Under the pieces are notes generated by a model, which had not been told where the DNA came from, did no database searches, and saw only the letters and a program-made list of their open reading frames with translations. The position numbers were made by a program, and so were the translations under genes. A stretch of 64,000 nucleotides of DNA from an uncultured Verrucomicrobiales bacterium (GTDB lineage: Bacteria > Verrucomicrobiota > Verrucomicrobiia > Verrucomicrobiales > Akkermansiaceae), in contig CBFGTW010000006.1 of the NCBI GenBank assembly GCA_965651855.1, forward strand, positions 716-64,715, read 5' to 3'. Numbering within the stretch: position 1 is the first letter of the stretch; the number at the start of each line of letters is the position of its first letter. Shown piece after piece: positions 2,677 to 47,013 of this stretch.

Positions 2677-2779
2677 CGCGGCGGACCATAGACAAAGGCC
2701 CCGGCCGGGGAAGCGCGAATGCGTGGCAAATCGCTCGCCGCGCTTGTCGCCGCGAGCCTGAGCGGCTAGAGGTTTTCCC

Positions 2780-3106
2780 ATGGCTGACGAGCACTCCGTT
2801 CCCACCCCGGCATGGATCGAGACGACCGCGCTGACCGCACCTGCGTTGCTTGGTGCGGCGGCGGGCTTGCTGCTGGGCGACCTGATGCACCGCAATGCCC
2901 GGCGCGGCATCGGGATCGGTTTGGGGGCGGCCGGCGTGATGGCCTTGTTGCCCTTTGCCATCGGCGGCATCACCGGGCTCGTCAGCGGGCCACGCAGCCG
3001 GCTCGGCGTGCGGCGGAAGATCCAGCGCATCCGGGATGCGGGCATGCAGACCCGCGCGTACCCGGAGGACGTGGAAAGCCAGCTCCGCGAGCAGGGGCTG
3101 CTCTGA
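2780..3106 (+). CDS. Small membrane protein, unknown function
   Basis: 108-aa ORF with two Gly/Ala/Leu-rich hydrophobic segments (LTAPALLGAAAGLLLGDL and IGIGLGAAGVMALLPFAIGGITGLV). It lies directly upstream of the exosortase gene. No family recognised. Confidence 0.5.
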   Translation: MADEHSVPTPAWIETTALTAPALLGAAAGLLLGDLMHRNARRGIGIGLGAAGVMALLPFAIGGITGLVSGPRSRLGVRRKIQRIRDAGMQTRAYPEDVESQLREQGLL

Positions 3107-3179
3107 GCGCGCGGATATTCCGCTTTCCGCGCCGGGCCGCATTCGATTCACTGCCGGGGTCTTCGTCCTCCCTCCGGTC

Positions 3180-4064
3180 GTGAAGCAGCCCGTCGTCCAT
3201 CCGGCGGTGCCCCTCGCGGCGATCGCCGCCTTGTGGGTGCCGGTATATCTGGCCGCCGCGTACGCGTGGCGGAACGGCGACTACTACGACTACGGCTGGT
3301 TCGTGCCGCCGGCCGGGCTGCTGCTGCTCGCGCGGCGCTGGCGGGAAACTCGGGAGCCCTTCGTCCCGCCGCCGGCGAAGTGGCTGATGGCGGCTGTCGC
3401 GCTGCTTTTTCCGGTCTTCCTCGTCCTGCGCGTGCTGAGCTACGCCGATCCGTCGTGGCGCTTGCCGATGGTCCTGCTCGGGCTGACGGCCGCCGGCGCG
3501 ACGCACGTCTTCATCGGTGCCACCCGCGGCTGGAAAACCTCGGCCAGATTCGGGATCGTCACCTTGTTTCTCCTATCCGCCGTGCCGTGGCCTTCGGTGG
3601 CGGAACAGCAGATCGTCCGCACCCTCACTGCCGGGGTGGTCGCCACGGTGGCGGAGGTTTTCCAACTTGTCGGCAAGCCGGTCGAGGTGCTCGGCGACCG
3701 GCTGCGGCTCCACGACCAGACGGTCGAGGTGACCGATGGCTGCAGCGGCGTGCGCTCGTTCCAAAGCTTTCTGATGGCGACGTGGTTTTTCGCCGAACTC
3801 CAGCGCCTCCGCTGGCGGCAGACGCTGCTGCTGCTCGGCTGCGCCTGCGGCCTTGCCTTTGTTGTGAATGCCGGCCGCACCTATGCGCTCGCCCACATCC
3901 GCTTCACCCGCGGCGAGGCGGCCTTCGACCAAGCGCACGACACGCTCGGGCTGCTCGCCTTTGCCGTCACCGCCGTGCTTTTCTACCTCATCTCCGGCTT
4001 GCTCTCGCCCGACCGCCCCCGCCGTACCGTCCGCATCCGCAGGGCCGCCGCCACCTCCGCCTGA
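3180..4064 (+). CDS. Exosortase (PEP-CTERM protein-sorting transpeptidase family)
   Basis: Polytopic membrane ORF carrying the exosortase signature residues: Cys motif VEVTDGCSGVRSF, Arg motif VVNAGRTYAL and His in FDQAHDTLG. PEP-CTERM substrates occur elsewhere in the window. The start is uncertain: GTG at 3180 was chosen, while the listed ORF opens at 2955 and would overlap the upstream gene. Confidence 0.8.
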   Translation: MKQPVVHPAVPLAAIAALWVPVYLAAAYAWRNGDYYDYGWFVPPAGLLLLARRWRETREPFVPPPAKWLMAAVALLFPVFLVLRVLSYADPSWRLPMVLLGLTAAGATHVFIGATRGWKTSARFGIVTLFLLSAVPWPSVAEQQIVRTLTAGVVATVAEVFQLVGKPVEVLGDRLRLHDQTVEVTDGCSGVRSFQSFLMATWFFAELQRLRWRQTLLLLGCACGLAFVVNAGRTYALAHIRFTRGEAAFDQAHDTLGLLAFAVTAVLFYLISGLLSPDRPRRTVRIRRAAATSA

Positions 4065-4075
4065 TTCCGCCAGCC

Positions 4076-5812
4076 ATGAAATCCCGCCTCGACCGCCTCT
4101 GGGACCGCTGGGCGAACCTGCACCCGTTTCTCCGCTTCGCTGTGATCGCGGCCGGCCTCGCGCTGGTGGCGTTCGCCGCCGTGAAGCCGGGCTACCGCGC
4201 CTTCAAGAAGTGGCGGCTCGAGCGGAATCTCGCCGCCGCCAAGGAGGCCGTGGAAGCGGTCCGCATGGATGCCGCTCGCGATTTTTCGCTGACCGTGCTC
4301 CGCGCCGGCGACCCGCGCATCGAGGCCTTCCGCATCCTGGAAACCGCGATGGGCTCGCTCCGCGATCCGCGCCACCCGGACATCGCGCGCGCCTTGATGG
4401 CCCACCCGGAAGGCTCGGCGGACGACCGCCTGAACGGCTTCCGCGGCGTGGCTCCGTCGCTGCCGATGGGCGTGGTCGCGCAGTGCTGGGCCAGCCTGCC
4501 GGAGGCGGACCAGCGCGACCCGCGCTTCGCCGTGGCGCTGGCCGACCGCTTGATCGCGGAAAGCCGGCTCACCGAGGCCGCCTCCTTGCTCGTCGGGATC
4601 GAGCCGCCTGACGAGGCGGTGCGCCAGCGGCTCGTCCGCCTGCTCGTCGCCAGCGGCTCGGCCGAGGCGCTCGATGAAGCGCAGAAACGCCTCGCCGTGG
4701 AATGGCCCGCCGAGGCCGCACCCGGGGAATGGCTCGACATTCTCGCGTCGATCCCGCCCGCCTCGCTGCGCTCCGAGCGGCTCGCTCCGGTCGCGCGGGC
4801 GCTTGCGAAGCATGCCGGTGAAGCGCCGGCTGCCCTGGCCTTGGCGCGGATTTCCTACAGCGCGGACTTCGCGGCCCGGGCGCGGATTCTCGATGAAGCG
4901 GTCGGAAAATGGCGCGACGTCGCCCCCCTCGAAGTCGCCCGGTTCCTGCGCGACCTCGGGCTCGACCGGCGGCTGCGCGAGGTTTTTCCCGCCGGGGCGG
5001 TCGAGGCCGAGCCGGCATTGCTCCCGCTGCTCGCGGACGCCTGCGAGCGCGGCGAGGCGTGGGACGAGCTGGCCGCGCTGCTCGATGCCGAGGGCCAGCG
5101 CCTCCCGGTCTGGGAACAGAACGCCCGGCGGGCGCTGGTCGCCCACCGCACCGGAAACGCGCCGAAGTTCAACGAAGCCTGGTCCGCCGCGCTCGAGGAC
5201 GCGAAGTCGAGCGCCTCGCCCGAGGCCTGCCTCGCGCTCCACCGCTACGCCGCCCGCCACGGCCTCGCGGCGGAAGCGGACCGGGCGATGGTCGAGGCTG
5301 TCCGCCGCGGCCGGGGCCCGCTGCCGCTCTACGCCGACCTCAAGCCGCTGCTCGTCTCGCTCGCGCGCCAGAACCGCGAGCACGAGTTGATCCAGATCTG
5401 CGCGATCTATCTCCACTTCGAGCCGGGGAATCCGGTGCTGCTCACGCAATACGCTTATCTCGCCTGCCTCAACGACCTCGCCGCGCCGGACGTGCTGCTC
5501 AAGGCGGTCGCCCCGCTTGCCGAGGCCTATCCGGAAATCGCGCCGATCCAGTGCGTGCTCGCCACCCTCCAGCTCGCGGCCGGCTCGCCCGCGGTCGCCG
5601 CCGAGGTTCTCGACCGGCTGGACATCGATCCCGATGCGCTCGCGCCGGGCTACCGCGCCACGTGGTTTGTCACCCAAGCCCTGGCCGGCCGGATGACGCC
5701 CGACGACCCGCGGCTGCGGAATTTCCCGTGGAACGAACTCCTGCCGTCCGAGCGGCGGAAGTTCCGCAGTTTTCTCAAGCTGCCCGAGCCCGCTGAAACC
5801 AGCGGCCGCTGA
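4076..5812 (+). CDS. Membrane-anchored helical-repeat (TPR-like) protein, exosortase-adjacent
   Basis: The ATG at 4076 lies 9 nt after the exosortase stop and is in frame with listed ORF 3233..5812. It has an N-terminal TM helix (FLRFAVIAAGLALVAFAAV) followed by about 540 aa of Ala/Leu/Arg-rich helical sequence. No specific family recognised. Confidence 0.6.
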   Translation: MKSRLDRLWDRWANLHPFLRFAVIAAGLALVAFAAVKPGYRAFKKWRLERNLAAAKEAVEAVRMDAARDFSLTVLRAGDPRIEAFRILETAMGSLRDPRHPDIARALMAHPEGSADDRLNGFRGVAPSLPMGVVAQCWASLPEADQRDPRFAVALADRLIAESRLTEAASLLVGIEPPDEAVRQRLVRLLVASGSAEALDEAQKRLAVEWPAEAAPGEWLDILASIPPASLRSERLAPVARALAKHAGEAPAALALARISYSADFAARARILDEAVGKWRDVAPLEVARFLRDLGLDRRLREVFPAGAVEAEPALLPLLADACERGEAWDELAALLDAEGQRLPVWEQNARRALVAHRTGNAPKFNEAWSAALEDAKSSASPEACLALHRYAARHGLAAEADRAMVEAVRRGRGPLPLYADLKPLLVSLARQNREHELIQICAIYLHFEPGNPVLLTQYAYLACLNDLAAPDVLLKAVAPLAEAYPEIAPIQCVLATLQLAAGSPAVAAEVLDRLDIDPDALAPGYRATWFVTQALAGRMTPDDPRLRNFPWNELLPSERRKFRSFLKLPEPAETSGR

Positions 5813-5968
5813 AAAAAGCAGTGCTGCCAGGGAATCCGCGGCAAGTCCGGACAAACTACCGTTGCTCCGATCAAGGCCTGGCGGGGTTCGCTTGCCGAAC
5901 CTCCACGGCCCCTGACAGCGCGGGAAGAAAAGCCGAGCCCGCCCGGCCCTGCAACGCCTTTTTCCGCG

Positions 5969-6373
5969 TCAGGCGAACCACTCCGGCAACGGCGCGGTCA
6001 CCGGCAAGCCGTCGATGCCGTGGAAATGCGCGTCCGACGTGAGGACCGCGGCGCCGAGGCGGAGGGCGCTCGCGGCGATGACGATGTCGCTGCCGGGGAG
6101 GGTCCGGCCGCGGCGGTCGAGCGACCACGCGAGGTCCGCCGCATCGTTCCACAGGCGGGCGTCGCTCGGCACGTTCACCAGCACGTCCATGAAGCCGGAG
6201 AGCGCCCGGCGGAGCTTGAGCGACTTGATGCCGCGCAGCACCTCGAGGCGGATCATCCCGCAGATCGCCAGGTCGCGCGCGCCGGCCCAATCGCCAAGCA
6301 CGCGCGCCGGGTCGCGCCCGGCGCGCAGCAGGTCGATGTAGATTTTGCTGTCGACCAGGATGTCACTTGCCAT
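5969..6373 (-). CDS. vapC: PIN-domain ribonuclease toxin VapC
   Basis: 134 aa. N-terminal ILVDSKIYIDLL (first acidic residue) and C-terminal AAVLTSDAHF are typical of PIN/VapC. It overlaps the upstream antitoxin gene by 11 nt. Confidence 0.8.
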   Translation of the reverse strand: MASDILVDSKIYIDLLRAGRDPARVLGDWAGARDLAICGMIRLEVLRGIKSLKLRRALSGFMDVLVNVPSDARLWNDAADLAWSLDRRGRTLPGSDIVIAASALRLGAAVLTSDAHFHGIDGLPVTAPLPEWFA

Positions 6374-6605
6374 ATCTCTTCGGCTCTTCGGCGACGCGCA
6401 TGGCCAGCGTGTCGTAGCCCGGCTCGACGCCTGCAGCCAATTCGTCCGGGGTCAGGCCCAGGCCGTTCTTCACGTACTCGCGGTAGTGTGCCTTGCGGTC
6501 CATTTCCCGCAGGGCCATTTCCACCGCCTCGGTCTTGCTGGCGCAGCCGTAGCTGTCGATGACGCGGTCCAGCAGGACCTCGTCAATGTGCATCGTCATT
6601 TTCAT
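6363..6605 (-). CDS. vapB: Type II antitoxin VapB (DUF2191-like)
   Basis: MKMTMHIDEVLLDRVIDSYGCASKTEAVEMALREM matches the VapB_antitoxin pattern (T-L-D-I-D-x-x-L-L ... T-K-T-E-A-V-x-x-A-L-R-E). The start could be any of the Met codons between 6593 and 6641. Confidence 0.7.
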   Translation of the reverse strand: MKMTMHIDEVLLDRVIDSYGCASKTEAVEMALREMDRKAHYREYVKNGLGLTPDELAAGVEPGYDTLAMRVAEEPKRYGK

Positions 6606-6650
6606 GCCATACCCAATATGGCACATATCTCCCGCTTGCAAGCCGCTTTT

Positions 6651-7217
6651 TCAGCCGAGCAAAGTGCTGCGGGTGAAAAGCGGGATCACGTGGATGCCGC
6701 GGGCCTCGATGGCCTGGCGGCCGCCTTCCTCGCGATCCACCAGCACGATGGCGAAGGCGACCTTGCCGCCCTCGCGCTCGATGGCGTCGATCGCCTTGAG
6801 CGTCGAGCCGCCGGTGGTGATCACGTCGTCCACGACCACCACGGTGTCGCCGGAGTGGAAGTTGCCTTCGATCTGTTTGCCTTGGCCGTGGCCTTTCGGC
6901 TCCTTGCGGACGGTGAAGACTTGCAGCGCCTCGTGCGGATGTTGCATCGCGGAAGTCATGCCGATCGCCAGCGAAATGGGGTCCGCTCCGAGCGTCATGC
7001 CGCCGATGGCGTCGATCTTGAGGTGCTCGGAGTGGATCTTCGAGCGCACCGCGTGCCAGCCGAGTTCGCCGATGAGCCGGGCGCCGAAGGGGTCGAGCGC
7101 GGTGACGCGGCAGTCGATGTAGAGGTCGCTTTGTTTTCCGGAGGCGAGCGTGAAGGATCCGGTGCGGACGGATTTCTTCAGGAGCAGGGATTTCAGGTCG
7201 GCGGCGGCTTTCTGCAT
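6651..7217 (-). CDS. pyrE: Orotate phosphoribosyltransferase
   Basis: Start re-placed at the ATG at 7217 (MQKAAADLKSLLLKKSVRTGSFTLASGKQSDLYIDCR). PRPP-binding motif VVVVDDVITTGGST is present. The ORF extension up to 7601 is Arg/Pro-rich and looks like an artefact. Confidence 0.9.
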   Translation of the reverse strand: MQKAAADLKSLLLKKSVRTGSFTLASGKQSDLYIDCRVTALDPFGARLIGELGWHAVRSKIHSEHLKIDAIGGMTLGADPISLAIGMTSAMQHPHEALQVFTVRKEPKGHGQGKQIEGNFHSGDTVVVVDDVITTGGSTLKAIDAIEREGGKVAFAIVLVDREEGGRQAIEARGIHVIPLFTRSTLLG

Positions 7218-7252
7218 GGCGCGATGATCGGAACCGCCGGCGCGGCGCGCAA

Positions 7253-8170
7253 TCAGAAGTTCCCGGACTTCAGCGCCACCTCGCTCGCCCCGGCGTGGAG
7301 CGCCATCTGCCGTGCGGCGTCCGGAGCGGCGACGCAGCAGGCGGTGGCGAGGGCGTCGCTGAGTGTGGCGGTGGGGGCGGTGACCCGGGCGGAAACGCCG
7401 CGCGTGAGGCCGAGGCCGGTGGCGGGATCGATGATGTGCGAGTAGCGCGTGCCGGCGATCTCGATGAACTGGTGGAGGTCGCCCGAGGTGGAGACCGCGG
7501 CGTTGGCGAGTTCGATGACGTCCTCTCCCGCGCCGATCTTCCAGGCCGCGGCATCCGGCGGCGGGCCACCGGCGCGGACGTCGCCCCCGGCGGTGATGCA
7601 AGTACGAGGCAGGCCGTACTTGTGGAACACGTCGAGCATCGCGTCCGCGGCTTGGCCTTTGGCGATGCCGCCGAGGTCGAGGCGCATTCCCGGCACGAGC
7701 AGCGTGGCCGTGCGGTCCGCGAGCCGGAGGTTTTCCCAGCCACAGGCGGCGCGGGCTTCCGCGAGGGTCGCCGCGTTCGGTAGCCGGCCGCGGCGGCGGG
7801 ATTCGCGCCAGAGTTTTGTCAGCGGGCCGAGCGTGGGATCGAACAAGCCGCGGGTTTTCTCCGCGAGCGCGATCGCCTCCGAGAGCAGTCGGAACAACAG
7901 CGGGGAAAGCTCCACCGGCTCGCCCGTCGGCGCGCGGGAAAGGCGGAGGATTTCCGAGTCCGCGATGTAGTCGGAGGCCACGGCATTGATTTCATCGGCG
8001 GCTTCGAAGGCGACACGGGCGGCTTCGGTGGCGGCGGCCTTTTCGCCGTGGCAGACGATCGAGAACCGCGTGCCCATCAGCGGGCGCTCGAAGGCGTGCC
8101 GTTCCGCGGCACCGGCGCGGACCGGCAGGAGGGACGCGCCGAGCAACAGCAGCGTGCGGCGGCGGGTCAT
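7253..8170 (-). CDS. apbE: FAD:protein FMN transferase ApbE
   Basis: 305 aa with a signal peptide. Motifs LMGTRFSI, LDLGGIAKGQAAD, GGDVRAGG and YSHIIDPATGLG are typical of ApbE. Confidence 0.88.
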   Translation of the reverse strand: MTRRRTLLLLGASLLPVRAGAAERHAFERPLMGTRFSIVCHGEKAAATEAARVAFEAADEINAVASDYIADSEILRLSRAPTGEPVELSPLLFRLLSEAIALAEKTRGLFDPTLGPLTKLWRESRRRGRLPNAATLAEARAACGWENLRLADRTATLLVPGMRLDLGGIAKGQAADAMLDVFHKYGLPRTCITAGGDVRAGGPPPDAAAWKIGAGEDVIELANAAVSTSGDLHQFIEIAGTRYSHIIDPATGLGLTRGVSARVTAPTATLSDALATACCVAAPDAARQMALHAGASEVALKSGNF

Positions 8171-8171
8171 T

Positions 8172-9272
8172 TCACTCGCTTTCGCCGGGCCCGGTGTTCC
8201 ACCAGCGGTGCATTTCCTCGGCGGGCGGCGTTTCCAGCGGCCGCACGATCCGGAATCCGAGCCAAGGAGCGTCGGTGTAATACCAGATCGACTTCGGAAT
8301 CTGCGGGTCCTTCACCTTCCACGCCGTCGAGCTGCCGAGCCGGGCCGCGCTGCGCAGGTCCGCCGGATCGGCGTCCCAATGGCCGCCGCGCACGGAGGTC
8401 GGATGCCGCTCGACCGGCGGGATCCAGGGATTCGCCGCGCCGTCCTCGAGTTTAGCATACGCTTCGGGAAGATATTGGTCGATGACGTGCTCGGCGACAT
8501 TGCCGTGCATGTCATGAAGACCCCAAGGGTTTGGCTTCTTCATGCCGACCTTCTGGTATTGGAACTCCGAGTTTTCGGTGAACCAGGCGTAGTCGTCGAG
8601 AGCGTCCGGGCTGTCGCCGAAATGCCAGGCGGTGGTGGTGCCGGCGCGGCAGGCGTGTTCCCACTCCGCCTCGGTCGGCAGGCGGTAGAACCGGCCGGTC
8701 TGCGCGCTGAGCCATTCGCAGAATTTGCTGGCGGCGTGCTGGGTCATGCCGACCGCCGGGAATTCGGCGCCGTAGCCATCGGCCATGCCGAAGTGCATCG
8801 GCACGTAGGGCGGCGTCGGTTGCGTCACGGTGTCCACCAGCGTCTCGTCGCCGAGTGCCTCGGGCGCTTCGGAGGTCGTGAGGTCCGAGTCGCGGTTGAG
8901 CGTGCCGTCCTTGTTGCGGCTCATGCCGTTTTCCATGAACGGCCGGTAGAGCGCCCACGTCACCTCAACCTTTCCCATCCAGAACGGATCCACCTTCACG
9001 CGGCGCTGCGGACCTTCGTCGTCGCGGCGCTCCGCTTCGGATTCCGGCGACCCGATGACGAACTCGCCGCCGGGGATCGGCACCATCTCGAGCTTCGCGC
9101 CGCCGGCGAGCGGCGGTTCCTCGGCGTAGGCCTTCATGTCTCCGGCCGCCGGAGCGGGCGATCCGGAGATCTTTTCATGAATGGCGCGGGTCGTCGGGAA
9201 AAGTTGTGGATTCGGCAGCTCGTCGGCGACAGCCATCGCCGCGAATGGAAACAGGGTGAGCAGGACTCGCAT
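8172..9272 (-). CDS. Secreted FGE-sulfatase (SUMF1/EgtB/PvdO) domain protein
   Basis: Signal peptide present. Motifs RLPTEAEWEHACRAGTTTAW, NPWGLHDMHGNVAEHV and VRGGHWDADP are present. It lacks the C-terminal GGSFLCHxSYCxRYR motif seen in the canonical FGE at 55444..56508. Confidence 0.8.
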   Translation of the reverse strand: MRVLLTLFPFAAMAVADELPNPQLFPTTRAIHEKISGSPAPAAGDMKAYAEEPPLAGGAKLEMVPIPGGEFVIGSPESEAERRDDEGPQRRVKVDPFWMGKVEVTWALYRPFMENGMSRNKDGTLNRDSDLTTSEAPEALGDETLVDTVTQPTPPYVPMHFGMADGYGAEFPAVGMTQHAASKFCEWLSAQTGRFYRLPTEAEWEHACRAGTTTAWHFGDSPDALDDYAWFTENSEFQYQKVGMKKPNPWGLHDMHGNVAEHVIDQYLPEAYAKLEDGAANPWIPPVERHPTSVRGGHWDADPADLRSAARLGSSTAWKVKDPQIPKSIWYYTDAPWLGFRIVRPLETPPAEEMHRWWNTGPGESE

Positions 9273-32485: not shown

Positions 32486-34414
32486 TCACGGCACGATCTT
32501 CACCCGGTCGCCGTGGCGCATCGTCGAGAACAGGCGCGCGGCGTCGGCCGGCGGCACGCGGATGCAGCCGTGCGACGCCGGGTAGCCCGGGACGTGGCCG
32601 GCGTGCAGGCCGAAGTCGCTGCAGCTCAGGCGTTGGAAATAGGGCATCGAGGCGTCGTAGAGCGTCGAGGTCCAGTGGCGGTGTTTGTTCGTGACGACGA
32701 ACTCGCCCTGCGGCGTCTCGTAGCCGCGGCGACCGGTGGAGACGCGGGTGGCGAGGACTTCGTTGCCGTCGGCGTCGAAGAGCCGCGCGCGTTGTTCGGA
32801 GAGCGAGATGATCAGGTGGCGCTCCTCGCGGTGCGGGTGCTGGCCGAGCAGCAGGCGCATCATCGGGATGTCGTTGCGGCGGGAGGCGAAATTGATCGGC
32901 CAGAGTCGTGCGGTCCCCGTCCAGGCGCTGGTCTTCGCGCCGGCGTCGAGCAGGGCGCGGGCGACCTCGAGGTTTCCGGAATCCGCCGCGATCATGAGCA
33001 GCGTGGCGTTCCGGTCCCTCGTGAGCACCCAGCGCATCACGCCCGGGCGGATGTGGGCGATGAAGGCCCCGGATGGCGGGCGGCTGAAGACGGCGTTCGG
33101 GTCGGCGCCGTACTCGAGAAGCCGGCGGGTGGTGCGGGGCAGGCCTTTGGCGACGGCCAGGTGCAGCGGCGGCTCGCCTCCGGGCAGGTGGATGTCCGGG
33201 TTCGCGCCGTGTTCCAAGAGCAGCACCGCGAGGGCGTCGTGCCCGCCGGCGAGCGCGGCCGCGAACGGCGAGCCGGTGGTCGGGGTGCGCGCGGAATTGG
33301 GGGCAACGCCGCAGGCCAGCAGCAGCTTGGCTGTGGCGACATCCCCGCGCGCGCAGGCGATCTCAAGCGACCGCCCCGGCGGATGGCCGGAGGCGAGGAG
33401 CAGCTTCAGGAAGGAATCGTTGCCGCGTGCCGCGGCGGCCTCGAGCCACTCGGAGGGAACCGCCGGCCGCGCGCCGTGGCGCAGCAACAACGCGGCGGTG
33501 CGGACATCCCGCGCCAGGAGGGTGTGGAGGAACAGCGGCGACCAGTCGCCCGCGGGACGTGCGCCGTTCTCCAAAAGGAAGTCGATCGCCTCGCGGTCGG
33601 CGGCATGGAGGGCGGAGGCGAGCATCGTCCGGCCCGAGGCATCGGGGAGGTTCCAATCCGCGCCGGCTTCCGCGAGGCGGCGCATCCCCGTGAACCAGCG
33701 GGCGCGCATCGCGAAATGGCCCGCGGTTTCGCCCGTGGCGCCCGGGAGGTTCGGATCGGCGCGATGCGCGAGAAGCGCGGCAAGCAGCGGCCCGTCCCGC
33801 CGCTCGATCGCCTTCATCAGCGGCGTCGCGCCGGAAGCATCCGGTGCGTCCGGGTCCGCGCCCGCCGCGAGCAGGGCGGGGGCGATCTCGGTGAACCCGC
33901 GGTCGAGCGCCGGGTGGAGCGCTTCGCCGTGGGCGAGGCCGGCGGCGAGCAGCCGCGCCGCCAACTCGCGACGGTCGCCGAGGACGCACCAGCGCACCAC
34001 CGGCGTGCCGTCGGGCATCGTGGCGGCCGCGTTTGGGCCTGCTGCGGCGAGCAATTCGATGATCCGTTCGTGGCCGGCAAGCAGCGCGGCTCCGAGCGCC
34101 GCCGCATCCGCCGCTCCGGCATCAAGCAACAGCTTCGCGCAGCGGGCATCGCCGTTCTCCACGGCGATGCCGAGCGGCGTGCGACCCGTGGCATCGCGGC
34201 TTCCGGCGTGGACGCGCGCCTGGAGCAACCACGCGGCGGTTTCCGCATCCCGCCGCGAAACGGCCTCCACCAACGACGCGCCGGTGGGCTCCACGCCACT
34301 CGCCGCGAGAGCCCGCAGCGCCTGGCGCTCCGGCGAGTCGCACGACGCCACGAGCAGCAACACCGGGACGATCAGCCCCAGCGTCGCGCGTTCGGGAAGC
34401 GTCCTGAAGTTCAC
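32486..34414 (-). CDS. Lipoprotein with about 12 ankyrin repeats fused to a C-terminal YkuD L,D-transpeptidase domain
   Basis: Lipobox LLLVASC. Repeated G-x-TPL-x-x-A-x-x-x-G/R-H-x-x-x-x-x-LL-x-x-GA-D/N units are present. The C-terminus is HLIISLSEQRARLF...FGLHAGHVPGYPASHGCIRV. Confidence 0.85.
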   Translation of the reverse strand: MNFRTLPERATLGLIVPVLLLVASCDSPERQALRALAASGVEPTGASLVEAVSRRDAETAAWLLQARVHAGSRDATGRTPLGIAVENGDARCAKLLLDAGAADAAALGAALLAGHERIIELLAAAGPNAAATMPDGTPVVRWCVLGDRRELAARLLAAGLAHGEALHPALDRGFTEIAPALLAAGADPDAPDASGATPLMKAIERRDGPLLAALLAHRADPNLPGATGETAGHFAMRARWFTGMRRLAEAGADWNLPDASGRTMLASALHAADREAIDFLLENGARPAGDWSPLFLHTLLARDVRTAALLLRHGARPAVPSEWLEAAAARGNDSFLKLLLASGHPPGRSLEIACARGDVATAKLLLACGVAPNSARTPTTGSPFAAALAGGHDALAVLLLEHGANPDIHLPGGEPPLHLAVAKGLPRTTRRLLEYGADPNAVFSRPPSGAFIAHIRPGVMRWVLTRDRNATLLMIAADSGNLEVARALLDAGAKTSAWTGTARLWPINFASRRNDIPMMRLLLGQHPHREERHLIISLSEQRARLFDADGNEVLATRVSTGRRGYETPQGEFVVTNKHRHWTSTLYDASMPYFQRLSCSDFGLHAGHVPGYPASHGCIRVPPADAARLFSTMRHGDRVKIVP

Positions 34415-34464: not shown

Positions 34465-34941
34465 TCAGCTCATCGCATATTCAAGCAGAAGCCCTTGGAT
34501 GGTTTGGTAAAACTGCGACCGGAAAAACGCCGAACGCTTCCGCATGTCGAGCGCCTTCGGATCGATGTCCACCCGCGGTCCGAACCGGTGGCGTTCCTCG
34601 ATGGCGAGGCGCGCCTGGTTGAGCGCGCCATACCAGCGGAGCGCGTCCTCGCGGTGGATCCACAGCGGGCCGGCGTCGTTCTCGTCCGCCTTTTCCCGCG
34701 CCTCTTGGATCGCGATGTCGACGTGGTTGAGCTGGTCGTCGAAATTCTGGCGCAGGTCCGGGACGACGAAATCCTCCCAGTCCGAGGCGTGCGGATCTTC
34801 CGCCATCAGGCCGCCGAGTTGATCCGCGAGATCGCCGCCCTCGGCGCGGGCGTCGCGGGTGATCGCTTCGAGCAGCGCCCAGTCCGTGGCGCTCTCCGCG
34901 TCGATGCGCAGCCCGCCTTCAATCGTCGGCATCACGTTCAT
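34465..34941 (-). CDS. DUF2017-like protein (ClpS-associated)
   Basis: 158-aa acidic protein overlapping the clpS stop by 4 nt. The ...WYGALNQARLAIEE... pattern resembles DUF2017, which is typically encoded beside clpS. The family call is from memory. Confidence 0.5.
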   Translation of the reverse strand: MNVMPTIEGGLRIDAESATDWALLEAITRDARAEGGDLADQLGGLMAEDPHASDWEDFVVPDLRQNFDDQLNHVDIAIQEAREKADENDAGPLWIHREDALRWYGALNQARLAIEERHRFGPRVDIDPKALDMRKRSAFFRSQFYQTIQGLLLEYAMS

Positions 34942-35219
34942 GCGACCTTTTCCAAGGAGGTTTTCAGTTGGAACGACTGGAGCTGCTGGGCGTAGAACTC
35001 CGCCTTCTCGCGCTCGCCGGACCAGACGATCGACCGGCCGCGCTCGTGGACCTCGAGCATCAGGCGCGTCGCCTTGGTCTCGTCATAGCCGAAGATCTTC
35101 ATCAGGACCCAAGTCACGTAGTCCATCAGGTTCACCGGATCGTCATGAACGACCACGTTCCACGGGACGTCGAGCGCGACGTCCGCGCGCGTCTGGGTGA
35201 GTGTGTCGCTGTCGGCCAT
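34938..35219 (-). CDS. clpS: ATP-dependent Clp protease adaptor ClpS
   Basis: 93 aa. WNVVVHDDPVNLMDYVTWVLMKIFGYDETKATRLMLEVHERGRSIV is a typical ClpS core. Confidence 0.92.
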   Translation of the reverse strand: MADSDTLTQTRADVALDVPWNVVVHDDPVNLMDYVTWVLMKIFGYDETKATRLMLEVHERGRSIVWSGEREKAEFYAQQLQSFQLKTSLEKVA

Positions 35220-35228
35220 GAGGGATGC

Positions 35229-37817
35229 TCAAACTTCGGCGGGTTCCTCGCGGGGGGCGTCGATCCATTTCCCGTGCTCGCGGATCAGGTCGATCAGGCG
35301 CTCCACGGCCTCGCCTTCGGGAATGTTGAACTTCACCGCGGTCTTGCCGACATACAAGTTGATCTTTCCCGGTGCGCCGCCGACATAGCCGAAGTCCGCG
35401 TCCGCCATCTCGCCGGGGCCGTTGACGATGCAGCCCATCACGGCGATCCGCACGCCCTTGAGGTGGCCGGTGGCGGCGCGGATCTTCTGCGTGGTGTGCT
35501 GGAGGTTGAAGAGCGTGCGGCCGCAGCTCGGGCAGGCGACGTAGTCGGTCTTGAAAATCCGGGTGCCGGCGGCCTGCAGGATGTTGTAGGCGAGCCGCAG
35601 CGACTGGCCCGGCGCCTTTTCGCCGCGCACGAGGATCGCGTCGCCGATGCCGTCGCAGAGCAAAGAGCCGATGTTCCGCGCGGCGACCAGCAGGGCCTCG
35701 ACGAAATCCGTCTCCTCCTGCGGCGGGTGCAGCGTGTCCTTCAGCAGCACTGGATGCCGCGGGTCCGCGCGGAACGCGAGCAGGCGGAAGGCGTGGATCG
35801 GCTCGAGGTCGAGGCCGTCCTTCACCGTGACCAGCCGCGGGCTCTCCTCCGCATTCAGCTCCGCGACCGTCGCATCGTCGCGCGGGTCGATTTCCAACGC
35901 GCCGGCCTTTTCGAAAACAATCTCCGGCTTGAAGTCGCCCATCTGGGAAATCTTGTGCGCCACCGCGTTCCAGCGCTCCTGCGTGGTGAAGACCCGCACC
36001 GTCCGGTCCCCGCCGAGCTCGTGGCCCTGGATTTCGAGCACGGAACTACGGCGTCTCTCGTAGTTAAAGGGGTTGTAGGAGGGGGTGGTTGCGGCGTCAG
36101 CCGCAACCGTGGCTGGTGCTTCCAGCTCCAGTCCGTTGTCGGAGCATCCTGCTCCGACAATCTTCTCCCAGGACTCCGCATACCTCGATCCCGTCCGTTC
36201 CGCCGACACACCCGCACGCCGAGGGTTTTCCAGCACATATCTCACCTGATGGCGGAAGTCTTCCCCGTCGCGGACAATGTGATCGAAATACTCCTGCTGC
36301 CAGAAACTTCCGTCTCTTCCGAGAAGCTCGTTCGCCCGCTTGGCCGTGAATGATTTCCAGGAGTGGATGATTTTCTCCAGCTCCTCGTCTTCGTTGGGCT
36401 TCACGATGACATGCACGTGATTCGGCATCACCGACCAGGCGATCAGCTCGTAGCGCTGGCCGTCAAAGTGTTTGAGGGCGTTCTCGACTACTGAGGCGAC
36501 CTCCGGATTCGTCAGCGGACACGAGCCGAGGCCGCGATCCAACGCGTGATCGACGGTCTTTTCATGAAAGCCCGCGATTTCCTTTCTCAGGGACAACAGC
36601 TCGGGCAGGATGTCGCGTGATCCGGCGCGCGATTTGAGTTCCTCGAGGCGCTGCGCGAGGATTTGCTTCTTGCGGTTGCAGTCTTCGAGAACATCGGCCG
36701 GCAGTGAATCCTGGACGCGGAAGGTGACGGCGTAGGTGGCTCCGGGGATGCGCCAGTGGGGGAGGAAGGTGGAGTCCTTCTTGAGGAGGAGATTCCAGTC
36801 GGGGCGAGTCGCTTGGGCATCGGAAGAGAAGGAGCGAGACGCTCCTTCAACGGACTGGGGCGAGACGCCCCAGCCACGCTGCTCGCTCCGCGAGGGCGCT
36901 TCTTTTGCTCCGTCGCGTTGATTGAACGGCCGCGCCAGCGCCTTGGCCACGGGGATCTCGTGGATGGCGTCTTCGGTCAGGGAGACGCGGATGGTGTCGC
37001 CGATGCCGTCGGCGAGCAGCGAGCCGATGCCGATCGCGCTCTTGATGCGGCCGTCCTCGCCGTCGCCGGCTTCGGTGACGCCGAGGTGGATCGGGTAATT
37101 CCAATCCGGACCCTCGACATCGAGCCGCGCGACGAGCAGGCGGTAGGCCTCGATCATGACCTTCGGGTTCGAGGCCTTCATCGAGAAAACGAAGTTGTGG
37201 TAGTTCTCGTCGCGGGCAATGCGGGCGAATTCGAGCGCGCTCTCGACCATGCCGAGCGGCGTGTCGCCGTAGCGGTTCATGATGCGGTCGGAAAGCGAGC
37301 CGTGGTTCGTGCCGATGCGCATCGCGCGGCCGAGGTCCTTGCACAGGTGGACGAGCGGGACGAACTGCTCGCGGATGCGCTGGAGCTCCGCCTCGTACTC
37401 GGCGTCGCTGTATTCGCGGACCTCGAACTTCTTCTTGTCCGCGTAGTTGCCGGGATTCACGCGGACTTTCTCGACCCATTTCGCCGCTTCGAGCGCGGCG
37501 TCCGGCTTGAAGTGGATGTCGGCGACGAGTGGCACCTGGCAGCCGGCGGCGCGCACCTCGCGGGCGATGTTTTCCAAGTTCGCCGCGTAGACTTTCGTCT
37601 GCGCCGTGATGCGGACGACTTCGCAGCCGGCATCCGCCAGCGCCAGCACCTCGCGCACGCAGGCGGGTGTGTCGCGCGTGTCCGAGGTGATCATCGACTG
37701 CACGCGGATCGGGTTGTTCCCGCCGACGCCGACGTCCCCGACCTTCACCTCGCGGGTGGCGCGGCGCTGGTAGCGGAGGAGGTCCGGGCAGTAGTGGAGG
37801 AGCTCGGCTGCGTTCAT
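35229..37817 (-). CDS. ispG: 4-hydroxy-3-methylbut-2-enyl diphosphate synthase IspG (long A-A*-B type) carrying an in-frame ~262-codon Y1-transposase-like insertion
   Basis: The ATG at 37817 gives MNAAELLHY... A domain: GGNNPIRVQSMITSDTRDT, RITAQT, IHLGVTEAGDGEDGRIKSAIGIG. B domain: DYVACPSCGRT, VMGCIVNGPGE. Between ...IPVAKALARPFNQR and SYNPFNYERRR... the frame runs through foreign-looking sequence (see the mobile_element feature). Confidence 0.85.
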   Translation of the reverse strand: MNAAELLHYCPDLLRYQRRATREVKVGDVGVGGNNPIRVQSMITSDTRDTPACVREVLALADAGCEVVRITAQTKVYAANLENIAREVRAAGCQVPLVADIHFKPDAALEAAKWVEKVRVNPGNYADKKKFEVREYSDAEYEAELQRIREQFVPLVHLCKDLGRAMRIGTNHGSLSDRIMNRYGDTPLGMVESALEFARIARDENYHNFVFSMKASNPKVMIEAYRLLVARLDVEGPDWNYPIHLGVTEAGDGEDGRIKSAIGIGSLLADGIGDTIRVSLTEDAIHEIPVAKALARPFNQRDGAKEAPSRSEQRGWGVSPQSVEGASRSFSSDAQATRPDWNLLLKKDSTFLPHWRIPGATYAVTFRVQDSLPADVLEDCNRKKQILAQRLEELKSRAGSRDILPELLSLRKEIAGFHEKTVDHALDRGLGSCPLTNPEVASVVENALKHFDGQRYELIAWSVMPNHVHVIVKPNEDEELEKIIHSWKSFTAKRANELLGRDGSFWQQEYFDHIVRDGEDFRHQVRYVLENPRRAGVSAERTGSRYAESWEKIVGAGCSDNGLELEAPATVAADAATTPSYNPFNYERRRSSVLEIQGHELGGDRTVRVFTTQERWNAVAHKISQMGDFKPEIVFEKAGALEIDPRDDATVAELNAEESPRLVTVKDGLDLEPIHAFRLLAFRADPRHPVLLKDTLHPPQEETDFVEALLVAARNIGSLLCDGIGDAILVRGEKAPGQSLRLAYNILQAAGTRIFKTDYVACPSCGRTLFNLQHTTQKIRAATGHLKGVRIAVMGCIVNGPGEMADADFGYVGGAPGKINLYVGKTAVKFNIPEGEAVERLIDLIREHGKWIDAPREEPAEV
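36087..36873 (-). mobile_element. IS200/RAYT-like Y1 (HUH) transposase module with flanking stem-loops, inserted in frame within ispG
   Basis: Motifs LPHWRIPGATYAVTFRV, HUH MPNHVHVIV and Tyr helix RYVLENPRRAG are present. Perfect hairpins lie at 36087..36108 (9 bp), 36136..36160 (11 bp), 36828..36848 (9 bp, AGA loop) and 36855..36873 (8 bp, AGA loop). GC is lower than in the flanks: 33/60 at 36301..36360 versus 41/60 at 36961..37020, counted by hand. The boundaries are approximate. Confidence 0.7.
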
Positions 37818-44013: not shown

Positions 44014-47013
44014 ATGAAACGCAGATATCTCTGTTCCGCCTCGCGCCGCCATGCCGGCGCGGCAGGCACCGCCCTCATTGTACTCGCCTTCAGCCAGGCC
44101 CACGCGCAGACGCTGCGGACGTGGATTTCCGGCACCGAAGGAAACTTCGGCACGGCCGAAAATTACGTCGACGGCATCGCCCCGGTGGCCGGCGATTCGG
44201 TCGATGTCAACGGCGCCGGCAGCGTCGTCGAGTTCACCGAAGCGAACACCATCACGCTCGTGAACCTCCGTCTCGCCGAGCCGGCGACGGGTGGCACGCC
44301 GGTCTTCAACCACACCGGCGGCGACCTCACCTTGACCGGCCTCCTCCAGCTCAGCGGCGGCGGCGCGAGCCGGAATCCGACCTACAACCTGAGCGGCGGC
44401 ACCTTGACCACGCCGACCCTCGCCTGGAGCCAAGGCAGCAATGTCACCTACAACCAGACCGGCGGCGTGGCGGACATCACCGGCACGGCCGACTTCAACA
44501 TCGCGCGCCGCGGTTCGTTCAGCCTGGCGAACGACGCGGTTTTCAATGCGGCGGCCACCGGTGCGATCTTCACGGCCAACGGCGGCGGCGCGGTCGGCAA
44601 TGTCTTCCTCGGCGGCACCGCGCGGTTCAACGCCCCGGACGCCACCTTCGTCGTCGGCCAGTTCGGCGACGGAGCCAGCGCGACGCTCCTGATCCAGGAC
44701 GCTGCGGAACTGACGGTGGAAGCCATCACCGTCGGCAACAACAACGCGGGCAGCGCCACCAACGGCATGATCTACCTCGACGGCGGTGTCATCACCACCG
44801 GCTCGATCCACAAGGGCGCCAGCTCGCTCACCGCCGGGCCGACCCAACTCGCCCTGATCGCCAACGGCGGCACGGTCCGCGCGTCGGCGCACGCGAACAA
44901 CGCCAACTTCTTCCAGAATTTGTACGTGGATCTGGACGCCGGCGGCCTGACCTTCGACACCAACGACAACTTCGTCATCATCGCCAACACCCTCCACGGG
45001 ACCGGCGGCCTGACCAAGACCGGTGGAGACGCCCTGCAACTCAACGGCTTCAACACCTACTCCGGCGACACGGTCGTGGAGCAAGGCACGCTGGTCCTCA
45101 ACAGCGCCAGCCTGCACGACGAGAGCGCGTTGACCGTCGCGGATGACGCCGTCGTGGATCTCCTCCACGGAGTTGAGGACCGGGTGGCTTCCCTCACGCT
45201 CGGAACGCAGACCTTCACCACCGGGACGTTCGGCTCGCCGTTCTCCAATGCCGACAACAAGAGCGACTACTTCGCGGGCACGGGCCTCATCCGGCTCGGC
45301 GAAGCACCGGAAGGTCGCGAACTCGTCTGGACCGGGGCCGAGAGTTCGTTCTGGGGCACGCTCTTCGCCGAGGACAACTTCGTTCTCGCCGGCACGGAAA
45401 CCGCCGCCGCATTCCAAAACGGCGACCACGTCACCTTCGACGACAGCGGGGTGATCCTCGAGCCCGAGGACCCGAGCGACGAAAACAGCCCGCTGGTCCC
45501 CCGCCCGGTGAACATCGATGCGGTGCAGCCTGGCAGCACGACCGTCGAAGGCACCGCGGACTGGATCTTCCAGGCGAGCACCGGCGGCATCGCCGGCGAC
45601 GGCGGAATCACCTCGAGCACCAGCGGCACCGTCAGTCTCGGCGGCACGAACACCTTCCTCGGACCGGTGGAGGTGAATGCCGGCCGGATCGTGATGACCA
45701 CCAACCAAGCCCTCGGCAACAGCTCCGGCGTGACCGTCGCCGAAGGCGCGCAAGTGGACATCGGCGGCGCCGCTCCCGGGGCGCTCTACACCTTCACCAT
45801 CGCCGGGGACGGACCGGACGGCGCGGGCGCGATCACCAACACCGGCGGCGAGGTCTTCAGCGCCAGCCCGGTGAAAGACCTGGTGCTCGCCGGCGATGCC
45901 AGCATCGGCGGCGACGGCGCGCGCTTCGACATCGGCGGTGGCGGCGGAATCCTCACGGCAAACGGTCACACGCTGACCAAGACCGGCACGAACACGATGG
46001 GCTTCCGCGCCGACGCGGAGGGAGCGGCGATCGTCATCGAGGAAGGATCCGTGTTCGGCCAGGGCAGCGGCAATGCCTTCGGCGGCACGAGCGGCTCGCT
46101 CACCATCCGCAACGGCGCGCGCGCCGGATCATGGCAGTCGCTGACCATCCCCACCGCGGTCACGATCGAGGACGGAGGCGCGCTCTACAACCAAGGCGCC
46201 GGCACCGGCACCTGGAGCGGCGCGTTCACCTTGCAAGGAAACGTGACGGTCGACGCCGGTGACGGACCGATCCAGATGACGGGCGCCGTCAGTGGCACGG
46301 CGAATCTGACCAAGACCGGCGGCAACACGCTCACCCTCGCCAACCCCGGCCACGCCGGCGACACGACGGTGGACGCCGGCACGCTCAGCCTCGGTGCGGC
46401 CGGCCTTGCGGACACCGGAAACGTGGCGGTCAACGGCACGGCGGTGCTCGACCTCGCCCACGGCGCCGAAGACACCGTCGCCACCCTGACATTCGATGGT
46501 CAACCCGCCGCCACGGGCACCTGGGGAGCGCCCGGCTCGGGCGCGGCGAACATCGACGAGGCCCGCTTCACCGGCTCCGGCACCCTGCTCGTGCTCGACC
46601 AACTCGAGCCGCCCGCCGGATACGCCTCGTGGGCTGCGGGCTTCGGCCTCGAAGGCGCCGAGGCAGCGCCCGATGCCGATCCGGATGGCGACGGCATCGC
46701 GAATGCCCTCGAGTTTGTCCTCGGCGGTGATCCGACCCTCCCGTCACAGGACCTGCTGCCCACGGTATCCGCCAACGGCGAAACCGTGACCTTCACCTTC
46801 CTGCGGGACGACGCTTCGGAAACGTCGGGCACCGCCGTGTCCGTCCAGCACAGCGACGATCTGGAAACCTGGACCACCCTCGACATCGGCGCGGCCTCCG
46901 CAGGTGAAGTCACCATCGAGGAAAATGGCGACGAACCGGACCTCGTGACCGTCACGCTGCCGAAGAACGGCGACACCCATCTCTTCCTCCGCCTGCGCGT
47001 GGTGGTGGATTGA
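44014..47013 (+). CDS. PATR-repeat protein with TSP3-like C-terminal module, tandem paralogue of 42051..43841
   Basis: The ATG at 44014 is followed by a signal ending AFSQAHAQ. PATR units: LTKTGGDALQLNGFNTYSGDTVVEQGTLVL and LTKTGGNTLTLANPGHAGDTTVDAGTLSLG. The C-terminus is DADPDGDGIANALEFVLGGDP...LFLRLRVVVD. Confidence 0.85.
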   Translation: MKRRYLCSASRRHAGAAGTALIVLAFSQAHAQTLRTWISGTEGNFGTAENYVDGIAPVAGDSVDVNGAGSVVEFTEANTITLVNLRLAEPATGGTPVFNHTGGDLTLTGLLQLSGGGASRNPTYNLSGGTLTTPTLAWSQGSNVTYNQTGGVADITGTADFNIARRGSFSLANDAVFNAAATGAIFTANGGGAVGNVFLGGTARFNAPDATFVVGQFGDGASATLLIQDAAELTVEAITVGNNNAGSATNGMIYLDGGVITTGSIHKGASSLTAGPTQLALIANGGTVRASAHANNANFFQNLYVDLDAGGLTFDTNDNFVIIANTLHGTGGLTKTGGDALQLNGFNTYSGDTVVEQGTLVLNSASLHDESALTVADDAVVDLLHGVEDRVASLTLGTQTFTTGTFGSPFSNADNKSDYFAGTGLIRLGEAPEGRELVWTGAESSFWGTLFAEDNFVLAGTETAAAFQNGDHVTFDDSGVILEPEDPSDENSPLVPRPVNIDAVQPGSTTVEGTADWIFQASTGGIAGDGGITSSTSGTVSLGGTNTFLGPVEVNAGRIVMTTNQALGNSSGVTVAEGAQVDIGGAAPGALYTFTIAGDGPDGAGAITNTGGEVFSASPVKDLVLAGDASIGGDGARFDIGGGGGILTANGHTLTKTGTNTMGFRADAEGAAIVIEEGSVFGQGSGNAFGGTSGSLTIRNGARAGSWQSLTIPTAVTIEDGGALYNQGAGTGTWSGAFTLQGNVTVDAGDGPIQMTGAVSGTANLTKTGGNTLTLANPGHAGDTTVDAGTLSLGAAGLADTGNVAVNGTAVLDLAHGAEDTVATLTFDGQPAATGTWGAPGSGAANIDEARFTGSGTLLVLDQLEPPAGYASWAAGFGLEGAEAAPDADPDGDGIANALEFVLGGDPTLPSQDLLPTVSANGETVTFTFLRDDASETSGTAVSVQHSDDLETWTTLDIGAASAGEVTIEENGDEPDLVTVTLPKNGDTHLFLRLRVVVD

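Follow-up and report, generated by a model that had tools for sequence, protein, structure and literature searches.

A stretch of 64,000 nucleotides from an uncultured Verrucomicrobiales bacterium (contig CBFGTW010000006.1; the window hereafter) carries an ispG gene whose open reading frame (ORF) runs without a stop through a transposase of the REP-associated tyrosine transposase (RAYT) type, flanked by repetitive extragenic palindromic (REP) hairpins. Our preferred explanation, which we hold to be probable, is that a RAYT/REP unit sits in frame in a surface-exposed linker of IspG, is translated as an internal domain of this enzyme and still works as an element, having entered the site once and having later been lost and exchanged. 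The arrangement is not a one-off. A reading made earlier from the sequence of the window alone (the sequence-only reading) knew this single case, and we found a RAYT nested at the same site in at least 120 IspG protein clusters.

A RAYT between the A and A* domains of IspG

The ispG ORF extends on the minus strand from an ATG at 37817, a start that agrees with alignment to 18 orthologues, to a stop codon at 35229-35231. The Pfam match to GcpE (E 5e-125) was broken into two stretches, with a Y1_Tnp match between them. All parts of a three-domain IspG were found, that is, a TIM barrel, an A* domain and a B domain with three Cys and one Glu ligands, and the A domain of the AlphaFold2 model superposed on the solved IspG structure 4MWA (TM-score 0.87-0.89). 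In relatives, GcpE_C (PF26540) was also detected. Among 70 aligned insert-bearing IspGs, the 4Fe-4S ligands C762, C765, C796 and E803 were invariant, as was most of the A and B domains.

In frame with ispG, the element occupies the variable linker that joins the A domain to A*. Specifically, the linker is bordered by ...EIPVAxALxxPFN at the end of the A domain and by (F)TPSYDPFSYERR at the start of A*, and the junctions of the element in the protein read ...PFNQR/DGAK... and ...ATTP/SYNPF. The sequence-only reading had described a stop-free ispG frame through an insertion at the A/A* linker, and the ORF, the Pfam matches and the 18-orthologue alignment all agree with it. It had put the extra length at about 262 codons; the in-frame segment is real, and its exact length relative to empty orthologues is 265 codons (36084..36878). 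The components of the gene, in the order in which it is read and with the basis of each assignment in brackets, are as follows.

35229..37817, minus strand: ispG (GcpE), three-domain A-A*-B type, 862 aa (ORF, Pfam, orthologue alignment)
36921..37817, minus strand: IspG A domain (TIM barrel), aa 1-299, C-terminal end ...EIPVAKALARPFN (alignment, model)
36084..36878, minus strand: RAYT/REP element, 795 nt or 265 codons, with inverted GTGG tags at both ends (orthologue comparison, repeats)
36855..36878, minus strand: upstream outer REP, CGTGG-CTGGGGCG-TCT-CGCCCCAG on the gene strand, encoding RGWGVSPQ (repeats, covariation)
36828..36854, minus strand: upstream inner REP, CCGTTG-AAGGAGCG-TCT-CGCTCCTT on the gene strand (repeats)
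36183..36764, minus strand: core of the RAYT (Y1/HUH transposase), aa 352-545, reaching from LPHW to a little beyond the Tyr helix (Pfam, 4ER8, pLDDT)
36408..36428, minus strand: HUH motif MPNHVHV, aa 464-470 (motif, conservation)
36219..36242, minus strand: catalytic tyrosine helix RYVLENPR, with Y527 (motif, conservation)
36136..36160, minus strand: downstream inner REP with a perfect stem of 11 bp, in inverted orientation to the upstream REPs, encoding part of GAGCSDN (repeats)
36108..36131, minus strand: downstream middle REP, on the plus strand CGTGG-CTGGTGC-TTCCA-GCTCCAG, one mismatch, encoding LELEAPAT (repeat arm)
36084..36108, minus strand: downstream outermost (third) REP, on the plus strand GGTGG-TTGCGGC-GTCA-GCCGCAA (repeats)
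35229..36080, minus strand: IspG A* and B domains, aa 580-862, first residues SYNPFNYERR (alignment)

The REP units at both ends follow one plan: each combines a tag of the form GT[A/G]G with a TCY loop and a stem of some 8 bp (CTG-N5 ... N5-CAG), and the units stand in tandem at 26-nt spacing. Two units stand upstream, the inner being a direct repeat of the outer at that spacing, and three inverted units stand downstream, the outermost of which has a GCGGC-type stem like those of two relatives, L004 and L008 (L numbers denote loci and P numbers proteins). The four hairpins named in the sequence-only reading are perfect and lie where it had placed them, at 36828-36848 (9 bp), 36855-36873 (8 bp), 36136-36160 (11 bp) and 36087-36108 (9 bp, with GTGG just 5'); its inventory had missed a fifth, imperfect hairpin (36108-36131) and an imperfect terminal inverted repeat of 48 nt (36108-36155 vs 36831-36878, 79% complementary). 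The window as a whole contains 29 perfect hairpins with stems of at least 7 bp, four of them inside these 795 nt (Poisson P ~3e-4), and among the window hairpins the GT[AG]G tag is confined to those of the element. A GTAG or GTGG tag was likewise present at nearly all element ends in the 13 relatives that we examined.

The GC content is 0.56-0.58 at 36200-36599 as against 0.63-0.70 in the flanks, a drop that had been claimed from a hand count. The IspG frame has 0 stops across the element and the other five frames have 4-7. As also claimed before, the stretch from the upstream hairpins to the PHW of the LPHW motif contains no in-frame ATG, GTG or TTG. A promoter and terminator scan of the element gave no match on the gene strand, and two terminator-like matches on the opposite strand were at chance level. 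The element thus lacks a start codon, a stop codon and any promoter-like signal of its own.

The insert carries the transposase motif LPHWRIPGATYAVTFRV beside MPNHVHV and RYVLENPR; these Y1/HUH hallmarks had been recognized correctly in the sequence-only reading, and the Y1_Tnp profile (PF01797) matches aa 452-517 with 36.4 bits against a cut-off of 23. By sequence, the closest solved relative was the E. coli TnpA_REP (4ER8, E 7.8e-8), with the IS200/IS605 TnpA of ISDra2 at E 0.14. A fold search with the full-length model gave only IspG and TIM-barrel matches, and we therefore modelled the insert alone. In this model, the predicted local distance difference test score (pLDDT) exceeded 90 over most of the core, and Foldseek again placed 4ER8 first (E 5.2e-7, TMt 0.60), with ISDra2 at E 1.6e-4. 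AlphaFold applied to the whole protein gave a pLDDT of 84-96 for the RAYT domain (aa 330-555) and of less than 50 for the REP-encoded segments (aa 303-327 and 555-577). The RAYT is thus predicted to be a confidently folded, independent domain on disordered, REP-encoded tethers.

Four of the traits that mark a RAYT were found, namely the HUH motif, a single Tyr on a C-terminal helix (Y-x3-N-P), greater closeness to TnpA_REP and inverted REPs with GTAG-type tags. Judged by sequence and predicted structure, the element is a RAYT/REP unit and not an IS200-type insertion sequence, because 4ER8 is the best match by both sequence and fold and because its ends are inverted, GT[AG]G-tagged REP doublets. 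On these grounds, we abandoned the label of a minimal IS200-type element given to it in the sequence-only reading.

In RAYTs of the IspG-insert family, the first strand is separated from the remainder of the HUH fold by some 55 additional aa (window 36380-36540). This insertion is made up of two helices, predicted at 75-97 and at 102-128 (aa 75-128 of the insert, in the numbering of the 277-aa segment), and is absent from the E. coli TnpA_REP. A candidate for a second Y1-like gene in the window (44662-44832, tblastn E 0.003) proved to be a spurious frame of a large plus-strand ORF and was rejected as a chance match.

Distribution, exchange and selection

IspGs with the insert are 812-923 aa long and make up at least 120 distinct protein clusters, the best 120 of the full-protein search all being insert-bearing. 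They are annotated plainly as IspG. Carriers include the cultured Luteolibacter ambystomatis, L. pohnpeiensis and Haloferula helveola, and their assemblies include contigs or complete genomes of 4-5.7 Mb. We measured linker lengths in 76 verrucomicrobial ispG loci after alignment with the 18 orthologues. Empty linkers of 30-96 nt were present in 66 loci, so that the empty site for which an orthologue comparison had been proposed does exist, while nine complete loci and one partial one had an insert of 759-825 nt in the same place, always in frame and always open. In the orthologue alignment the site was identical in every carrier. Moreover, each of the 14 DNA copies examined, and more than 120 proteins, kept the frame open through the element. 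Carriers were distributed patchily on the IspG tree, with empty close relatives nested among them.

One empty allele, in L010, has a linker (6898-6954) that reads AGTGGC-CCGGACGACGGAC-CGCAGCGGAGCGCCCCAG-GCACT and encodes SGPDDGPQRSAPGT. This combination of tag, spacer and degenerate REP looks like the scar of an imprecise deletion of a former RAYT/REP cassette. A weaker scar may be present in the linkers of L013, L014 and L016 (GGTAGCTTCGG). Two other loci were set aside: L017, a supposed disrupted allele, has its stop 21 nt from a contig end at 2.7x coverage and was not counted, and the apparent 303-nt linker of L080 reflects a divergent, longer A* domain and contains no REP.

In a neighbour-joining tree, the 119 RAYT cores from the A/A* linker (site 1) formed one pure clade relative to 98 free RAYTs, nine from other host genes and three from a second IspG site (site 2, below). 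Because all site-1 copies form one clade, a single entry of the RAYT lineage into site 1 is indicated, and the cassette appears to have since been lost by deletion in some lineages. Within site 1, host and insert distances were only weakly correlated (r = 0.24). The inserts fell into three deep types, and these were mixed, with at least two types per cluster, in eight of 11 tight host clusters. Inserts that were 34-50% divergent occurred in hosts whose IspG was 98-99% identical, for example hosts 2% apart with inserts 49% apart; conversely, inserts only 12-14% divergent were found in hosts whose IspG was 10-13% divergent. The synonymous divergence (dS) of two host pairs displays the same disparity.

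L081/L082 (98-99% identical IspG): host dS 0.28-0.40; RAYT third-position identity 0.30, saturated
L083/L084 (98-99% identical IspG): host dS 0.03-0.14; RAYT dS 1.93

At the GT[AG]GC tags, identity fell from more than 0.9 to about 0.5 over a single 60-nt interval. This break in identity at the hairpin tags, together with the gap in dS between host and insert, argues that the history of the cassette is much deeper than that of the surrounding gene and that the cassette has been exchanged between strains at a fixed site. In L083/L084, the outermost downstream REP was shared and the 5' half of ispG was four times more diverged than the 3' half, a pattern compatible with a homologous recombination event that broke within a REP. 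The breaks of L081/L082 lie at both tags and fit homologous recombination and RAYT-catalysed replacement alike. The route of exchange would be either replacement catalysed by the RAYT or homologous recombination that acts in the highly conserved ispG flanks and breaks at or in the REPs.

Across the 70 aligned copies, the invariant RAYT residues were H354, W355, Y362, F366, F451, Y456, W461, M464, N466, H467, K488, W506, E509, D512, H513, Y527, N531 and P532. After the addition of 65 free-standing RAYTs, H354, Y362, F451, W461, N466, H467, K488, W506, E509, D512, H513, Y527 and N531 were still invariant, and W355, F366, Y456, M464 and P532 were at least 90% conserved; H469 was also at least 90% conserved across these 135 sequences (70 IspG-resident, 65 free). 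The RAYT core had a dN/dS of 0.13. The REP stems covaried, with double-sided changes in seven of eight stem pairs (73 cells) and a score of 0.76 against 0.19 in shuffles (34 REPs). By eye, the outer stems at the two ends of one copy were identical in about eight of 14 elements, and stems differed between elements. This argues that the hairpins are constrained at the level of DNA and not of protein, because they encode only disordered, variable peptides. Taken together, the cassette has the signature of a working element under purifying selection rather than of a passive spacer.

RAYTs were not confined to site 1 of IspG. A second, unrelated host domain was present in about 16 of the insert's 120 best homologues. 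Three IspGs of 1133-1141 aa (P0121, P0144 and P0003) contained two in-frame RAYTs. The second RAYT, positioned after HPILLKDTL in A*, has GFQP-type REP peptides on either side and falls in a different RAYT clade. Valyl-tRNA synthetases (ValRS) of Planctomycetota (P0241, P0247, P0255, P0004 and P0020; L085) carried a RAYT of the IspG-insert family in frame at the Rossmann/CP1 junction. P0241 shows full read-through into ...TVATTRPETMLGD, and in P0255 the RAYT stands in frame at a second ValRS site. Many of these RAYT-bearing proteins are annotated as 'class I tRNA ligase, partial'. The ValRS gene in L085 is cut by a contig end, and we discarded it as uninformative on read-through. Finally, in Sua5/TsaC proteins (P0039, P0014 and P0074; L086) a RAYT separated the YrdC-like domain from the Sua5_C domain. 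P0039 has it fully in frame; in L086 (3253-4942), the gene is broken up into two ORFs, one for the N domain and one for RAYT-Sua5_C.

The exact 23-nt REP GT[AG]GCTGGAGCGTCYCGCTCCAG was present in at least 120 stretches of metagenome contigs. In 80 loci (L087-L166, among them L130 at 2643-9132 and L092 at 1911-2057), 90 of 95 copies were solo, with a density of up to five copies per 13 kb and, in one contig, three in tandem at 62-nt spacing. DNA identity to verrucomicrobial ispG neighbourhoods was 67-91% for 16 of the 80 loci, and by such similarity several of the contigs are verrucomicrobial. Given such dispersed solo REPs in such contigs, REP populations of this RAYT family therefore exist in the clade.

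The surroundings of ispG are conserved as well, filled and empty alleles sharing one ispG-clpS-DUF2017 locus. In the window, the order of genes after ispG is:

34938-35219, minus strand: clpS, directly after ispG (window gene order)
34465-34941, minus strand: DUF2017 gene, next after clpS (window gene order)

Among the 76 loci, clpS lay directly downstream of ispG in 25, in filled and nearby empty alleles alike, and the gene calls of five carrier contigs contained the complete clpS-DUF2017 pair. The flanking IspG codons had a dN/dS of 0.011-0.18 in the two pairs compared. Because the Fe-S ligands are invariant, dN/dS in the host gene is low, the locus is conserved and carriers have been cultured, the filled allele is presumably a working ispG.

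Two further features of the window were noted. Beyond the DUF2017 gene, a 642-aa ORF (32486-34414, minus strand) contains, by eye, many ankyrin-like repeats and a C-terminal part resembling a YkuD-type L,D-transpeptidase (…HGCIRV…). The sole Rfam match in the window was a bacterial small signal recognition particle RNA (RF00169, 52 bits) at 5822-5917 on the minus strand.

Mechanism and competing explanations

Under our preferred explanation, the RAYT would be transcribed and translated solely as an internal domain of IspG. The REP DNA would be read as two disordered tethers rich in Gly, Ser, Pro and Ala, and the RAYT would fold as an independent HUH domain hanging off a still-functional IspG. 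Residence in ispG would supply the element with expression, and any frameshift or nonsense mutation in the element would be lethal or costly to the host, so that removal would be possible only by a clean in-frame deletion. The sequence-only reading had offered three options for the insertion, and the one closest to this, a selected or tolerated in-frame insertion in a permissive interdomain loop, is the best supported of them.

Several points weigh against this explanation. We infer the fusion polypeptide, its stability and its IspG activity from sequence conservation only, and a window of 64 kb leaves room for a second ispG or a mevalonate pathway elsewhere in the genome. Tagged REPs were absent outside ispG both in the window and in about 180 kb flanking 13 other filled loci. 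The sequence-only reading had suggested a search for further copies or REP arrays, and neither a second copy of the element nor such an array was present in the window beyond ispG. Additionally, some copies have damaged catalytic motifs: HVH has become HVN in P0180 (L081), and the ValRS copy P0247 has no Asp in YYDH; decay therefore happens, and not every copy is active. The hairpins behind the covariation score were ascertained as perfect Watson-Crick stems, which inflates the percentage paired and removes G-T pairs, and the trees are neighbour-joining reconstructions without support values.

A broader proposal, which we put forward tentatively and consider rather less likely true than not, is that a lineage-rich RAYT/REP family of the Planctomycetes-Verrucomicrobia-Chlamydiae (PVC) superphylum has an intein-like but non-splicing lifestyle. 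Its members would insert in frame in the interdomain linkers of essential enzymes (two sites in IspG, two in ValRS, and Sua5), would be expressed solely as domains of these and shielded by their essentiality, and would re-invade or replace one another at the same site through transposase-catalysed, hairpin-guided homing rather than homologous recombination.

The strongest competitor is that the RAYT was exapted, having been recruited for a host function in IspG such as regulation, localisation or nucleic-acid binding, and is kept for IspG and not for the REPs. The persistence of the architecture in at least 120 protein clusters, purifying selection on the domain (dN/dS 0.13), its confident fold prediction and the resemblance of RAYTs in general to housekeeping genes (PMC5581495) would all suit such a role. 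Nevertheless, we regard it as unlikely, since 66 of 76 orthologous loci do without the RAYT, including those of close relatives nested among carriers, and since three deeply diverged cassette types swap in hosts with 98-99% identical IspG. Moreover, the hairpins encode disordered, variable linkers and yet are kept by compensatory change, which an exapted domain would not need, and the same RAYT family is nested in the unrelated enzymes ValRS and Sua5. A fixed, domesticated domain, the second option of the sequence-only reading, fails on the presence of empty and filled alleles in one clade and on the exchange of three cassette types among near-identical hosts.

The third option was precise excision at the DNA or RNA level. 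In a wider form, the element would be removed before the enzyme is made, by DNA excision in most cells, by mRNA splicing or by cutting of the protein, and mature IspG would be free of it. In its favour, precise excision from single-stranded DNA is a property of the Y1 transposases of IS200/IS605, hairpins mark both ends of the element, and relatives have empty alleles. What makes removal improbable is that a gathering-threshold scan of the whole window against Rfam found no family, intron or ribozyme in ispG, that the protein has neither a Hint/intein domain nor the Cys/Ser ... His-Asn-Cys/Ser/Thr residues of an intein junction, and that the one clear scar, in L010, is an imprecise deletion and not a clean excision. 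Additionally, a 795-nt frame that is open in 14/14 DNA copies and more than 120 proteins is expected only if it is translated.

Slightly less credible still is a purely vertical relic, in which one ancient insertion was passively inherited, without mobility or exchange, and the divergence of the inserts reflects relaxed constraint. The single clade of site-1 RAYTs, the shared site in every carrier and the REP scars in empty alleles, which suggest ancestral presence, are what this scenario would produce; however, synonymous divergence is saturated or 1.93 inside the element and 0.03-0.40 outside it, the discontinuity sits at the REP tags, and inserts 12-14% apart in hosts 10-13% apart coexist with inserts 49% apart in hosts 2% apart. 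Finally, an artefact or a dying gene, that is, a chimeric assembly or a pseudogenised ispG with an intact paralogue, can be all but dismissed: the rest of the genome lies outside the window and the exact protein is absent from the public collection, but more than 120 independent assemblies, some of them complete genomes of 4-5.7 Mb, have the architecture, the flanking codons are under strong purifying selection, synteny is conserved and, as a weaker point, no second ispG was found for any of 10 carrier genomes among the best 80 loci of the genome scan.

Relation to known elements

RAYTs have been regarded as single-copy, free-standing and vertically inherited 'domesticated' transposases; here one would be a translated internal domain of an essential Fe-S enzyme in more than 100 taxa. 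The case would be a natural example of a transposase that persists through its in-frame position within an essential gene, much as inteins do but without splicing. Cultured Luteolibacter and Haloferula make RAYT activity and REP mobility testable on a defined substrate pair, and the nested copies show where IspG, ValRS and Sua5 naturally permit the insertion of a domain. They also carry a warning for annotation, given that nested proteins are filed as IspG or 'class I tRNA ligase, partial' and that RAYT surveys discarded such long proteins.

RAYT/REP (REPIN) systems, with the TnpA_REP of E. coli and Pseudomonas, are said to have been described by Nunvar in 2010, by Bertels and Rainey in 2011, and by Ton-Hoang and by Messing in 2012, the last with the structure 4ER8. 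The ispG element resembles them in its Y1/HUH transposase with a Y-x3-NP helix, for which 4ER8 is the best sequence and fold match, in having its gene between inverted REP hairpins with a conserved 5' GT[A/G]G tag, and in the identical REPs dispersed as solo copies in related genomes. In contrast to classical RAYTs, which are free-standing and intergenic with their own start and stop, it lies in frame within an essential ORF and has neither. RAYTs have been described as housekeeping-like and vertically inherited (Bertels 2017, PMC5581495). The ispG element is not congruent with its host, whereas known RAYTs are largely vertical (PMC5581495), a difference in behaviour and not in any structural criterion. 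In-frame REP insertions were noted by Quentin 2018 (PMC6006769), where 'unexpectedly long proteins' were discarded as fusions or annotation errors. A full-text literature search of incomplete coverage turned up no report of a RAYT lying within the ORF of a host gene.

Like it, elements of the IS200/IS605 group have a transposase of the Y1 HUH superfamily, bear hairpins at their ends and are small, at about 0.7-0.8 kb. They differ in having asymmetric subterminal hairpins at their left and right ends, no terminal inverted repeats and multiple copies per genome, while the ispG element has a 48-nt inverted repeat of REP doublets. IStrons of Clostridioides, which combine a group I intron with IS200/IS605-like genes, are likewise transposase-bearing elements that lie inside genes without destroying them. 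They restore the mRNA by ribozyme splicing, whereas no ribozyme was detectable in the ispG element, the open frame of which argues for translation.

Rickettsia palindromic elements were reportedly described by Ogata in 2000. These and other intragenic REPs are in-frame repeats translated as tolerated peptide segments, as the REP tethers would be here; they are 20-150 bp long, non-coding and without a transposase, whereas the ispG element brings a full transposase as a folded domain of about 195 aa. Palindromic repeats in frame in coding genes are thus known (Di Nocera 2013, PMC3733652).

Inteins and homing elements offer the nearest parallel in lifestyle. Like the ispG element, they are selfish, lie in frame in an essential gene, draw on host-gene expression and are protected by host essentiality, and they too show a presence/absence polymorphism at a fixed site and a phylogeny discordant with that of the host. 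The ispG element has no Hint domain or homing endonuclease, the Pfam search of the 862-aa protein giving only GcpE and Y1_Tnp and no intein signature. Unlike inteins, it occupies a variable linker rather than a conserved active-site motif, and it apparently stays in the mature protein.

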